64,000 nt of DNA from Eledone cirrhosa (GCA_964016885.1 OZ024743.1:8308001-8372000), one strand, 5' to 3'. Counted from the first letter of the stretch, positions 104 to 61,622 are shown. The notes: generated by a model not told the origin, from the sequence alone. Program-made: numbers and translations.

Positions 104-526
104 TTTAAAAGAATAGAGGTGTAACACACGAGTTATGATATATTGGTAAAGGGAAAAGAAAATGCTGACAAATTGTTCCCAGTGAAAAATAGTTTAATTA
201 GGAATAAGTAAAAATTAGTAATAAGTATTGGTTAGTATTCAGTTTTGGTTTTAAGTTTTTACCGGTTGCGCATTTCTAATGCTTTTCAAAAATAATTTTG
301 AGATAGAGCGTCCGTGATGTTTGCACTAATCTGATTAGTGCAAACATCACGGACGCTCTATCTCAAAATTATTTTTGAAAAGCATTAGAAATGCGCAACC
401 GGTAAAAACTTAAAACCAAAACTGAATACTAACCAATACTTATTACTAATTTTTACTTATTCCTAATTAAACTATTTTTCACTGGGAACAATTTGTCAGC
501 ATTTTCTTTTCCTTTTACCAATATAT
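104..526. mobile_element. Near-perfect palindrome (arms 138-331/333-526) of a PLE-like 3' end between (TA)n tracts, with a truncated hammerhead at its centre
   Basis: actaatc-t-gattagt centre at 332; one arm mismatch (151/513); right arm reads (c)tgat-tagtgc...gcatta-GAAA-tgcgca; ~35 nt extra tail 104-137 on the left copy only. Confidence 0.75.
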
Positions 527-1335
527 ATGTATATATATATATAAATGTAAGTCCAAAGAATCATTAGATAAAATATATACAGTATTTCCTCTCCCAACCA
601 ATATAAATCAACCACACAAAAAATCATTTAAACGAGGCTATAAGTTTAAAATGTATATTATGAAGAAATAATAGACAAATGATATACTGTAGCTTCTTTT
701 CCGCGATGTACAGCCATGTGATATTTACCTAATATTCTTTCTAGCCTGTAGAAATTGACTAGACATATATATATATGTATATATATATATATATATATAT
801 ATATATATATATATATATATATACATATATACATATTCCTCTTTCCAATATAAAGCGTGAAAATAATAAGACGTTTTGTACCTCTCTTTGTTGTCTCCTG
901 AAGCTATATATATATATATATATATATACACATATATATGCCTGTATTATTTGCTGTTTAGTCAGAGAAAGAAGGGCAGTACCCATATCCATTGTAAGGG
1001 TCATTTTAAGCCGGTGACCTGGTCAGAATTCTTACGACAATAATAAAGACATCCAAGTGTCAGACAGTTGTGTTAAACTGAGCCAATGGATCACGACTAC
1101 AACCCAAGTAGGTCCCAGCGAGATTTGAACTCAGAATACAAAATACCAGAATATATATCCCTAAGTATCTCGCTTCAAACCCTCACTTGTATCCCACTAC
1201 GAGGTATCTCACGTGCTACCCATTACCCAACCAAAGGATGAAAGTTCACTTCGGCGATATTTAAAATCAAATCACAAAGAACCGAAACAATTATTGCAAG
1301 GCGTTTTGTATTACGCTCTAACGGCTGCCAATTCG

Positions 1336-1620
1336 TATGTATATATAAATGTACATAGATATGCATATGTGTCGTGTGTGTATGTGTGTATGTGTGTATG
1401 TATATGTCTGTGCACGCGCATGTGTGTAACTGTGTGTGTGTGCACGTGTGAGTGTGTGTGTGTGTATGTGTGTGTGTGTGTGTGTGTGTGTGTGTGTGTG
1501 TGTGTGTGTGTGTGTGTGTGTGTGTGTGTGTGTGTGTGTGTGTGTGTGTGTGTGTGTGTGTGTGTGTGTGTGTGTGTGTGTGTGTGTGTGCGTGTGTGTG
1601 TGTGCGTGTGTGTGTGTGTC
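1336..1620. repeat. (TG)n microsatellite
   Basis: Long TG tract; explains the CVCV/HTHT ORFs. Confidence 0.95.
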
Positions 1621-2917
1621 TATATAGTAGGAAATATTTAATATTGCAATCATGAATGCAGTCAAATGATGATTCATGCAAATTGAAAGATGACTCCTAA
1701 CCCCCTCCCATTACAGATAAACCCTGATACCCATATTACACGAAAAATATGAATCTTAAAACTAATGTAATAATCAGTATTAGATAAAGGATACTAATTT
1801 CTGCTAAAACAAAATTTCAAATCAAATAACTCATTAATACTGCCGTACTCAAGAGTCCACACTTAAAATTAAACTAAAATAAAACACAATGAAACACGCG
1901 AACTAAACTTTAATTATTTAACTTTAACCGGAACAAAAAGCCTCACAAACCTCTGCAATTGACTTGAATTCCCTTCTCCTTAAAATATTCCAAAAAATGA
2001 AAAATTTGCGGTCCATAGACAATTAGATATAAAATTCCAAATGTATGTGATTTTATATATGTTAGTTAAAAAAGGGGAACCGTGATCTATTCTGACTACA
2101 AGCAAAAGGCACTCAAGAACCAATTGATGGTTATTCTCCACGACAATGTGTTCACTATGTTGCCCGTGGGTCCCAGCTGAGATATGTCATCCAACTGTAG
2201 GTGTAGAGTTTGTCTCCTCCCTCCATTTTGCTCCTCTTTTTCTGTTTTCTTTCTTTTTCCTTCCCACCTTTGTTTTGTCATTATGATATTGTTTGTAAAA
2301 TATACTATCAAACACGGCTATTCATATTTCCAATACAATATCATCTTTAGCTTGAAATAAAATAGGAAGTATATTGATAGTGTTAAACTAGGCGGTGCTC
2401 TAAGCTTACATCCGAAACAGAATTTCACAGCCACTCAGCCTCAAAGTGAAACATCAAAAGAGATTTTGTTTCGCTGCAGTTCTTATTTGCACATTTGATT
2501 TTATGAAAGAGAGAAAGTGTGTGTGTGTGTGTGTATAAAAGAGAGAGAGGGGAGAGAGAGAGAGAGAGAGAGGGGGGAGAGGGGGAGAGAGAGAGAGAGA
2601 GAGAGAGAGAGAGAGAGAGGAGGGGTGTGGAAAAAAGATGAGCGAAAACAGTGTGTGTGTTAGTATTTCTATAAGAATATTAGTATTGATATTAATTATA
2701 AACGAGTGATTATCAGATATATCGATAATTCTCATATGTATTCTTTTTAAAAACAAATTATAAAAACAAAAATAATAGATCGATAACCTATAATATTTTA
2801 TGCGCAATTCAGTTAAGTATAGGTCGTGTGAAGTCACTAAAAGAATGGCCCATCAAAAATGTTTTCCCGGCATTCATTAATATATACATATACATATATA
2901 TATATATATATATATAT

Positions 2918-3240
2918 ATACGTTAAGGGCCAAACACACTGAGATGATGGTTAAACATATCATCCGCACAGCCAAAATCAAAACGACCAAGTAATTCGGG
3001 TCAAACAATAAAAATATATGTGTTGATACTTTCCCGTATATATATTTTTATTGTTTGACCCGAATTACTTGGTCGTTTTGATTTTGGCTGTGCGGATGAT
3101 ATGTTTAACCATCATCTCAGTGTGTTTGGCCCTTAACGTATGTTGTAGCTCTGATTCATATGATTCATCGAGCGCTTGCCACACATATCGGACGTTGATT
3201 TTCGTTAATTCCTGAGCTGAAAACGATTCTCGCTAATTTA
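2918..3240. mobile_element. Tail-to-tail inverted pair of PLE-like pLTR fragments in (TA)n
   Basis: Arms 2918-3019 and 3040-3141 are reverse complements; aataaa near the inner ends; flanked by TA tracts. Confidence 0.6.
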
Positions 3241-3415
3241 TATTTATATTTATATATATATATATATATATATATATATATGTAGATAAATCTACCAAGA
3301 GTTTACGGTAGTGTCCAATCCGTATGAAGAACTCAATGTATTCCGGATATCATGGAAAGAAGAGATGTAATGAAAATCCAATTTCGGTGAAAGATAAACG
3401 GTATACAGAGTGAAG

Positions 3416-59779: not shown

Positions 59780-59784
59780 ATATA

Positions 59785-60275
59785 CTAGCAGTGGTACCCG
59801 GCGTTTCACGGGATAAGGTATTGTGAAATATATAACCGCCTTAGCTAAGCTTAGTATTGCCACAACCACGGCTGGCAAAGAAGTAAGGGTCTGGTGGTAC
59901 GTAAGTAAGCAACACTGAGGAAGAAGTTGTGTGCACTTACCAACTGTTTGGGGAATGAGTGTGAGATTCGTCTTGAGCAAGGGTGGCGGAATAACCGGAA
60001 GCAGCAGACATACAGACAGATATTATAAGGGCGCGACGTTATATGTAAGTATCTATCTAAAAAGAGAAAGACTAAGAATTATAGAGAGAGATTGCTAAAT
60101 CACCTAATGCGGTCCCTAGCTCATTGAAAATTTGAAATTTTTTTTTACTCAGAACACTCCCTGAAACAAGTATTACATGTGTAAAGTTTGAAAACAGTTG
60201 GTTGGGTGCTTCTCGAGTTTTAGGGATTCAAACTCACACACACACAGACAGACATCCTCAGTTTTATATATATAT
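59785..60275 (-). mobile_element. Non-autonomous Helitron
   Basis: Minus strand tatataaaactgaggatgtctg...cccgtgaaacgccggg-taccactg-CTAG|T. Confidence 0.75.
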
Positions 60276-60291
60276 ATATATATATATATAT

Positions 60292-60777
60292 TTCGTTTCT
60301 GAATTTGTTTAGCAAGATTCTTTATCTGAAATCGTGTGTTGAAACCGATATTGTTATACTTTGGGAGGGTCATATTGCCAATAAGAAACACACGCACCAG
60401 TTGCTTTCACTTCAATTTATTATATATTTATAAATTTATAAATTTCTGGTTGGTTGGTTGGTTGGTTCCACAACCAGATAGTTGTTTATATATAGTCATA
60501 GTTCTTTCGTCACACACTCTGTGACCTCTTCAGTGACTGAATGGCGTAGGACAGAACAAAGGAGAGGCACAGAAACAAAGAAAGGAATCCCCAGTCACTG
60601 AAGAGGTCACAGAGTGTGTGACGAAAGAACTATGACTATATATATAAACAACTATCTGGTTGTGGAACCAACCAACCAGAAATTTATAAATTTATAAATA
60701 TATAATAAATTGAAGTGAAAGCAACTGGTGCGTGTGTTTCTTATTGGCAACATGACCCTCCCAAAGTATAACAATAT
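60292..60777. mobile_element. Inverted PLE pLTR pair (arms 60348-60539/60592-60777) with a hammerhead on each arm (60494-60538 -, 60593-60637 +)
   Basis: agtca-CTGAAGA-g-gtcaca-gagtg-tgtgac-GAAA-gaac-TA-tgact; 3' end gaccctcccaaagtataac related to the 16.3 kb PLE end. Confidence 0.88.
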
Positions 60778-60786
60778 ATATATATA

Positions 60787-61622
60787 ATAAAAAAGAAAAT
60801 TTTCGCTCTACATGGCTGAATACAATAAATGTAATCTGAGTTTTTCGAATATTAATAATAACATTCGATTCATTTGCAATTATGCAAACAAGCCTCAATT
60901 CTATAGCCATGTCAGTAGAATGAACCCTTCATTCTTGCTCTTGTGTTGGCATGTGAACAGCCAGACTGCTAATATGCAAATCAGGCCAATCAGTCACTGT
61001 GTATTTTTGAAAATAGCATATATTTTCACTAGCTCTGACAGTTTGGCAGGTGAACAGTGAGCTGTACTGATGAAGGGTGATACCCAGAAACATTAGTATC
61101 TGCAGTTCTGTTCACATGCCAACACAAGAGCAAGAATGAAGGGTTTATTCTACTGACATGGCTATAAAATTGAGGCTTGTTTGCATAATTGCAAACGAAT
61201 CGAATGTTATTATTAATAGGCACATGGCTTAGTCGTTGGAGCATTGGGCTTGCAATCGAAAGGTTGTGAGTTCAATTCTCAGACCGGGTGATGTGTTGTT
61301 TCCTTGAGCAAGACACTTTATTAAAGTTTACTCAGCTGTAGAAATGAGATGATAGGACTGGGGTCTCTATCATTCCACTACAAAGTGGTCATGGAGGTGC
61401 CACGGCAAAAAGGCACCCAGCCCACACTGTAAAGTGGACGTGGAGGTGCCACGGAAAAAAAAGCACCCAGCACTCACTGTAAATGAGGTTGGTGTTAGGA
61501 AGGGCATCCAGCTGTAGAAATCAATCCAGAATCAATTCCCATCCCACCCTTGCAAGCAGGGAAAAGCGGACATAAAATGATGATGATGATGATGATTCAA
61601 AAAACTCAGATTACATTTATTA
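60787..61622. mobile_element. Inverted PLE-like pair with a hammerhead-like motif (61064-61098) in the loop; right arm split by a SINE
   Basis: Arms 60824-60960 vs 61108-61218 + 61595-61622; CTGATGA-a-gggt-gat-accc-a-GAAAcattag. Confidence 0.75.
61219..61594 (+). mobile_element. tRNA/CORE-like SINE with RTE-type 3' tail (GAT)n
   Basis: tggcttagt A box, gttcaattc B box, ccttgagcaagacacttt core, ggaaaagcggacataaaatgatgatg tail. Confidence 0.85.

Follow-up and report, generated by a model that had tools for sequence, protein, structure and literature searches.

Head-to-head palindromes of Penelope-like elements and their hammerhead ribozymes in the genome of Eledone cirrhosa

Palindromes and hammerheads in the window

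We have analysed a stretch of 64,000 nt from Eledone cirrhosa (GCA_964016885.1 OZ024743.1:8308001-8372000), hereafter the window, with positions counted from its first letter. The window carries head-to-head palindromes, eleven of which had been listed in a first-pass annotation that ascribed them to Penelope-like elements (PLEs) inserted in (TA)n. All eleven inverted repeats are present, ten of them by computation and the degenerate one at 30875-31005 by eye only (Table 1; 24057 and 24063 label one palindrome and its family, as do 29961 and 29966). BLASTN gave no matches between the arms of different palindromes, which had been stated to be mostly unrelated. The ascription to PLEs was borne out: as read from sequence, the palindromes are inverted insertions of PLE pseudo-long terminal repeats (pLTRs), of Hydra type and in one case Neptune-like, or of tandem retrozyme-like units. 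The marks of endonuclease-positive (EN+) PLE insertions were found, namely (TA)n flanks around most palindromes, in the window and at loci elsewhere, and inverted truncated copies with one-sided extensions, which are seen at the window palindromes too.

A type-I hammerhead core (CUGANGA/GAAA/UH) with stems I-III and covariation is, on sequence criteria, present in eight of the eleven palindromes, the majority that had been claimed; the other three are 138-526, 4331-4461 and 30875-31005. A relaxed type-I descriptor gave 12 matches in the window against 0-1 per shuffle (20 shuffles); other stretches totalling 1 Mb gave 84, and a single shuffle of them gave none. The window matches cover the palindromes at 3416, 23468, 24063, 29966, 37915 and 60348. 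The 59664 hammerhead passes once a longer stem III is allowed, and that of 60824 was read by eye, with one stem III mismatch that is missing from family copies. Stem I covaries across subfamilies (GGCTTC/GAAGCC, GAGATTC/GAATCTC and GAGCTTC/GAAGCTC). An Rfam scan of the window returned one hammerhead match, to HH9 in the 23468 palindrome (E=2e-4), under the gathering score, and otherwise hairpin or microsatellite noise. No CTGA.GA word occurs on either strand of 4331-4461 or 30875-31005, and no core was found within 450 nt upstream or 250 nt downstream in three long copies of the 138 family. The word CTGATTA in 138-526 was rejected as a core, being the reverse reading of a native 13-nt palindrome, CTAATCAGATTAG. 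The hammerhead at 3623-3757 has a stem II region of ~116 nt that is conserved in other family copies. Hammerhead-like motifs also occur in single, non-palindromic copies (5519-5492, 62186-62123, 16065 and ~4105), and the 3' end of the 13838-16306 element has an 84% copy at 3885-4230.

A wider sample comprised 115 arbitrarily placed, non-uniform 10-kb stretches (1.15 Mb). It held 56 compact TA-flanked palindromes, of which 14 had a hammerhead, 14 belonged to a hammerhead-less family designated Z, four had only the core word and 24 had neither. Arms numbered 38 for the 59664 family, 22 for 24057, 14 for 60348 and 57 for the very abundant family Z (long copy L197:2293-5070), and there were 100 hammerheads. 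Extrapolation from these 1.15 Mb to the 3.0-Gb genome gives, in the largest families, insertions on the order of 10^5. The window has three further hammerhead-less palindromes that are absent from the first-pass list, at 2918-3141, 49242-49691 and 55854-56460. Palindromic copies of the first are present in L009 and L046 as well. The third is a perfect 607-bp palindrome with a similar one in L218, and its left arm doubles as the right end of an element at 54238-56163 with 367-nt terminal inverted repeats.

One tail per pair and the positions of arm ends

The arms of a pair begin at two fixed 3' positions, either site A or site B, the latter being the end of a tail of 35-135 nt. One tail per pair was found in 151 of 158 pairs, and both arms were tailed in a single pair; two of the searches used tail queries, by which no-tail pairs are under-sampled and two-tail pairs favoured. 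All 33 regular-ended pairs of the 23468 family consist of an A arm and a B arm, after 6 of 39 pairs with irregular ends had been set aside, and other families gave 49/53 (the remaining four without a tail), 31/31, 10/10 and 16/16. Either arm can be the longer one: in the one family tested, the tail-less arm reached further upstream in 19 of 33 pairs and the tailed arm in 14. The one-tail rule, taken with this freedom of arm length, counts against simple fold-back and favours twin priming at two start sites of the reverse transcriptase (RT). A junction with a GCTT loop recurs at 34 loci; of these, 21 have a tailed untrimmed arm, seven a tailed trimmed arm and six no tail, and none has two tails. 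Both arms of a pair belong to one subfamily, and mismatches are fewer within a pair than across loci (1.8 vs 9.7, 5.4 vs 12.0, 4.5 vs 9.9 and 4.5 vs 19.4). Joints of 33 pairs comprise 19 with an overlap of 1-9 nt, one with an overlap of 20 nt, four that are blunt and nine with insertions.

For the families that insert as solo pLTRs, 5' ends were mapped with anchors 3' of the hammerhead cut, using natural long copies as references. Arms reading on upstream were set aside (2/21 in the 59664 family, 12/113 in family Z, and 10/47, 14/33, 4/11 and 7/12 elsewhere), and junction-containing queries, which are biased, were left out of the end-position counts and used only for tail counts. Only 2 of 87 ends in five hammerhead families fell within -6 to +8 of the cleavage site, against 11.4 expected from a uniform stop rate. 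Relative to the core C, the window junctions lie, for long and short arm respectively, at -4/-4 for 3416 (where the cut is at +135), -86/-85 for 24063, -65/+7 for 29966, -6/-1 for 59664 and -58/-6 for 60348. Ends in the families have modes at -6 for 59664 (13/19), -89 for 24057 (10/37), -69 for 29961 (3/7) and -7 for 3416 (2/5), and the hammerhead-less family Z has 68 of 101 ends at one point.

These family-specific clusters, 6-89 nt upstream of the core, look like transcription starts. A pyrimidine comes just before the base at the mode. The 59664 family has TATAAATA exactly 30 nt upstream of the modal end in four diverged long copies and CATAAATA at -29 in a fifth; its window junction coincides with TATA+30 in long copies. 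Family Z has TATTTAAA at -29 from its modal end, and long copies of the 138 family have CATAAAA at -31; the background of such TATA words is 1.6%. The junction of 138-526 is itself at the predicted +1, within the native 13-nt palindrome. That of 3416 is 3 nt from the initiator (Inr)-like TC[A]TT, that of 24057 is at the Inr-like [A]CTGCC 86 nt upstream of the core, and the long arm of 29961 stops ~70 nt upstream of the core, where the family has its hot spot. A promoter within the pLTR has been shown for Penelope of D. virilis (PMC2377424), and TATA and Inr elements were predicted in rotifer pLTRs (PMC3846280). An extra G ahead of the predicted +1, as from cap copying, is not claimed here, the few junctions being confounded by microhomology.

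Raw reads of three runs were compared with a long copy of the 59664 family. Depth is level across the cut (in X21, ~6800 at 1508-1515 and 6440 at 1516-1523) and in X21 drops from ~4150 to 600 over 1476-1483. None of the 15 opposite-strand joints listed, out of 41, is at the cut, with all three runs contributing. The same reads contain a 78-nt head-to-tail unit of the 59664-family hammerhead (L279:1478-1522; joint 1522 to 1478 plus ~33 nt), which may represent a minimal retrozyme or a partial tandem.

The 23468, 60824 and 37915 families consist of tandem units of 468, ~438 and 556 nt, respectively, with one hammerhead each and no long open reading frame (ORF) noticed. The short arms of their window palindromes start 19 nt after the cut, 8 nt after it and 2-4 nt before it. 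In the 23468 family, 22 of 90 ends fall at relative positions 23-58 (cut after 30), against 7.4 expected; loci that had not been used in choosing this zone gave 11/59 against 4.8 (p=0.007), and arms extending beyond the first core gave 14/65 against 2.5. The zone coincides with the 3' strand of a long predicted stem I in the 3' half of the ribozyme. There is no mode at the cut, and seven ends lie 4-8 nt upstream of the scissile bond with at most 3 nt of ambiguity. The 60824 family has a weak excess near the ribozyme (3/36 against 0.7, p=0.03). Of the proposed coupling between junction and ribozyme, what stands is an enrichment in tandem units, two- to threefold in the 23468 family; as a general rule the coupling was not supported. 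For tandem units the ribozyme probably matters, as a cut end or a stall, and covers about a quarter of ends. The 37915 family also forms a satellite-like array in L207 (minus strand, 362-5916) of at least nine units of ~556 nt with a hammerhead in each. Words of the form ATGCAAAT, which we take to resemble the octamer of small nuclear RNA-type promoters, are found at 60961-61000 and L048:1310-1330; the 60824 unit has them repeatedly, and they also occur in the 23468 unit. At one position, 10 nt upstream of such a word, four 5' ends of the 23468 family coincide.

A twin-priming model and its rivals

We consider it fairly probable that each palindrome is a single de novo insertion of a PLE, or of a retrozyme-like unit borrowing PLE machinery, made by twin priming at a cut (TA)n site. 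Two cDNAs would be primed, one from each 3' end of the cut target, and linked at the ends distant from the primers. The RT-endonuclease, probably a dimer bound to one RNA, would begin one strand at A and its partner at B; each cDNA would then run to the 5' end of the RNA or stall earlier, and the cDNA 3' ends would be joined by microhomology. The GCTT junction would arise if two cDNAs reaching -6 annealed through a terminal CC and an internal GG. A precedent is the PAc protein, which cuts and extends both target strands from two RT start sites that bracket the tail, and which is predicted to be a dimer (PMC11167929). In solo-pLTR families, the RNA 5' end would be the transcription start of the pLTR promoter. 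The position of the predicted start, 6-89 nt upstream of the hammerhead, would be incidental and the ribozyme a passenger in these families. A further stop zone, real but minor, is likely contributed in tandem retrozyme-like families by the cut end or by the long helix of stem I. The tandem-unit insertions have a PLE tail and form inverted pairs, which indicates PLE-type priming.

The palindromes are probably dead-end products, not replicons, because the TATA word, where there is one, is lost and because the hairpin of a read-through RNA would block the hammerhead fold; a transcript through 59664-59779 is predicted to fold as one hairpin of -92.9 kcal/mol. A stricter form of the model, which we put forward tentatively and hold somewhat less likely to be right than wrong, is that the dimer on one RNA gives each break end one start site, so that every insertion is a bidirectional double copy whose junction records the RNA 5' end: the promoter start in solo-pLTR families and the hammerhead-cut or -stalled end in tandem retrozymes. 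If this is true, the junctions of palindromes across the genome amount to a fossil map of where PLE transcripts end, and it is twin priming by PLEs, not rolling-circle copying, that inserts retrozymes.

A number of observations weigh against twin priming or against reading the end modes as transcript starts. The start sites at the modes are predictions. Three families have no TATA word at -30, and the ends of the 60348 family are scattered with no clear hot spot (2/19). The +1 windows and the list of TATA words were picked from the same data, post hoc, so that their p-values are not independent tests. Part of the drop in depth at 1476-1483 is due to a subfamily with another upstream sequence. 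The one-tail rule is looser in the 60824 family, where 12 of 15 pairs are one-tailed, two are AA and one is BB, with 5 of 20 pairs set aside. Many loci came from top-scoring searches, which favour young copies, and two of the queries contained the tail. The choice of start site was equal on both strands in vitro (PMC11167929). The closeness of paired arms fits one template RNA, fold-back or later gene conversion alike, and microhomology at joints fits fold-back equally well. In the 23468 family, a cut end, a stall and an internal start are indistinguishable.

Fold-back is the alternative in which a self-primed hairpin copy is made (PMC3846280) and the endonuclease then trims the tail of one arm at site A. 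It is unlikely in our judgement, but it accounts for the microhomology and for the near-identical arms within pairs; site A is AT-rich, as is the target, in 21 of the 28 informative GCTT cases it is the untrimmed arm that has the tail, and the tail has been ascribed to endonuclease-mediated resolution (PMC8557442). The first-pass idea that reverse transcription stops and turns round nevertheless founders on the tail-less arm, the longer one in more than half of the pairs tested, and on the 7 of 28 cases with the tail on the trimmed arm. A copy cannot exceed its template, so plain fold-back is out unless a nuclease later trims either arm at random. Tail ends also agree with the RT start sites determined in vitro (PMC11167929). 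It is an improbable reading that every family has its junction fixed by the cleavage or the fold of the hammerhead. The excesses in the 23468 and 60824 families speak for it, as do the three tandem-family palindromes in the window, whose short arms all start from -4 to +19 nt of the cut, and the mode of the 59664 family, which is the 5' edge of stem I. As a general rule it was nonetheless contradicted by the near-absence of ends at the cut in five families, with modes as far off as -69 and -89 in two of them, and by the lack of any drop in read depth there. Hammerhead-less families behave identically, with hot spots of their own, and only the 14 of 56 palindromes noted above in the wider sample have a hammerhead. 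Even in the best family, 68 of 90 ends are elsewhere. Hammerhead mutants left insertion size unchanged in vitro, catalysis being dispensable (PMC11167929).

The palindromes could instead be fixed non-autonomous elements, either hairpin retroposons or akin to miniature inverted-repeat transposable elements (MITEs), that multiply as units; we give this little credence. The recurrence of the GCTT-loop junction at 34 loci would suit it, and so would a uniform length of 116 bp in 27 of 30 loci, counted by eye with a junction-biased query. A junction-free query, however, yields many junctions and long single-arm parents, the tail occurs on one side or the other of the same loop, and three families have coding parents. 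A MITE has a fixed length and inner sequence and symmetric ends, whereas here junctions vary and ends are asymmetric. The notion of self-propagating mini-elements found no support, junctions being heterogeneous and the tail on either arm. An assembly or library artefact (hairpin chimeras) is scarcely credible. Three window palindromes are 99-100% perfect with spacers of 0-1 nt, and the raw reads tested are reduced-representation Illumina reads, not unamplified long reads. Opposite-strand joints of the 59664 family are nevertheless found in raw reads of three other, independent DNA runs, so the palindromes are not an assembly artefact, and one-sided tails, fixed 3' ends, (TA)n flanks and diverged old copies likewise argue against artefact.

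Parent elements and known systems

Table 1. Palindromes and PLE-related features of the window, with hammerheads as predicted from sequence
Feature	Position	Strand	Remarks
Head-to-head palindrome	104..526, arms 138-331 / 333-526	.	left arm alone tailed; hammerhead-less family
Perfect palindrome 3416-3821 with tail-like left extension	3282..3821	.	hammerhead in both arms, core 3623, cut after 3757
131-bp palindrome	4331..4461	.	no CTGA.GA word; family present at 3 other loci
Broken coding PLE	13838..16306	+	RT, CX4CxxC linker, C-terminal GIY-YIG, 3' hammerhead core near 16065
Single arm, hammerhead-less family Z	16495..16550	-	control family; tail piece also at 24549-24632
Palindrome of 468-nt tandem retrozyme-like unit	23430..23966	.	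hammerhead in spacer, core 23704, cut after 23734; left arm with partial tail
Palindrome 24057-24441 with right tail	24057..24525	.	Hydra-type family; hammerhead in both arms, core 24335, cut after 24384
Palindrome 29961-30234 with tail 30231-30313	29961..30313	.	Hydra-type family; minus-strand hammerhead, core 30068, cut 30014
Degenerate inverted repeat	30875..31005	.	no CTGA.GA word; related copy 43769-43938
Palindrome 37915-38136 with right tail	37915..38246	.	minus-strand hammerhead, core 38049, cut 37978
5'-truncated Hydra-type PLE	38905..40226	-	endonuclease end, long 3' untranslated region, hammerhead core 39012; parent family of 29961
116-bp palindrome 59664-59779 with left tail	59590..59779	.	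core 59725, stem I GGCTTC/GAAGCC, cut after 59763
Palindrome 60348-60777 with left tail	60292..60777	.	hammerhead in both arms, core 60598, cut after 60632; family ends scattered
Palindrome of ~438-nt tandem unit	60778..61622; arms 60850-60960 / 61108-61218	.	core 61067, cut after 61100; another repeat interrupts right arm

Two coding PLE copies lie in the window. The first appears Neptune-like by its motifs, because it combines an RT, a CX4CxxC linker and GIY-YIG, Nematis being a possible alternative; at 14337-15628 it gave RVT_1 (E=0.0013) and GIY-YIG (E=0.00044), both under Pfam cut-offs, and the linker closes 14337-15446. Both copies had been linked to palindrome families. The link of 29966 to 38905-40226 stood, at 90-92% identity, whereas that of 60348 to 13950-16306 came down to short matches (26 nt at 92% and 19 nt at 89%). 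The 138, 3416 and 59664 families yielded no coding parent.

In the 29961, 24057 and Z families, long copies code for a C-terminal endonuclease with CxCX5C, CxxC and CxH motifs and conserved E/N. These Hydra-type motifs were read in translations of L006, L097 and L197 (38% identity between L197 and L006, E=6e-37), and RT and endonuclease motifs are visible by inspection in L197 and L097. A Pfam search of the Hydra-type proteins, L197 and L097 included, gave no recognition; among the Atlas neighbours is a cluster in which 31% of members have GIY-YIG. Assignment of the three parents to Hydra is by motifs, in copies that are 5'-truncated. The Hydra clade is described as having the same endonuclease motifs, (TA)n targets and hammerheads that are called universal (PMC8557442). 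The linker, endonuclease motifs and (TA)n targets are common to the parents of the three families here, and a pLTR hammerhead is present in 24057 and 29961. Contrary to the reported universality, family Z has none: no core was found on either strand of its 2.95-kb coding copy, and Rfam found no ribozyme in its pLTR, although its 5' hairpin region might hide another ribozyme. The suggestion that ORF-less products dominate held in some families, to judge from the few arms that read on upstream in family Z (12/113) and the 59664 family (2/21). The window also holds two long ORF sets resembling retrotransposons that lack long terminal repeats (non-LTR), with endonuclease and RT motifs by inspection, at 19482-22835 (minus strand) and 32095-37290 (plus strand).

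Earlier descriptions cover pLTRs arranged head to head, with palindromes at the junction and a tail that one of the two may carry (PMC3846280), also in hammerhead-less Naiads (PMC8557442). Inverted pLTR insertions of EN+ PLEs (PMC3846280, PMC8557442) are alike in their 5'-truncated head-to-head copies, one-sided tail, microsatellite targets and pLTR TATA and Inr elements. They differ in that here the ORF-less, pLTR-only form is very abundant, the near-strict combination of A and B has been counted, the modes are at a predicted +1, and tails are 35-135 nt and not 30-40. The PAc Poseidon system in vitro (PMC11167929) shares two start sites bracketing the tail, extension of both strands and a dispensable hammerhead; it shows no difference between strands in start use, whereas the genomic pairs here use one start each. 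Non-LTR retrozymes (PMC7229834; bioRxiv 10.64898/2026.07.22.740005) have tandem units with one type-I hammerhead each, as in 23468, 60824 and 37915, but units here are 438-556 nt against a typical ~300 nt, and the retrozyme-like layout here is read from DNA. In Schistosoma, pairs of minimal hammerhead ribozymes on opposite strands, 100-700 bp apart, were ascribed to truncated PLEs in 2014 (PMC4209133). The dual layout is the same, and the available text of that paper contains no junction analysis.

We found no junction-ribozyme rule, counted one-tail rule or mapping of junctions to start sites in the literature covered, most subscription papers and the supplements lying outside its scope. The architecture is already known, and the counted one-tail rule is a new constraint on PLE integration. 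According to PMC8557442 and PMC11167929, the origin of tandem and inverted PLE insertions and of their one-sided tail is an open question. To this the near-strict one-tail rule offers a concrete, testable constraint that ties the two start sites known in vitro to the two target strands. The findings further restrict the role of the ribozyme, connect retrozyme insertion with the PLE machinery and flag a Hydra-type family that has no hammerhead.

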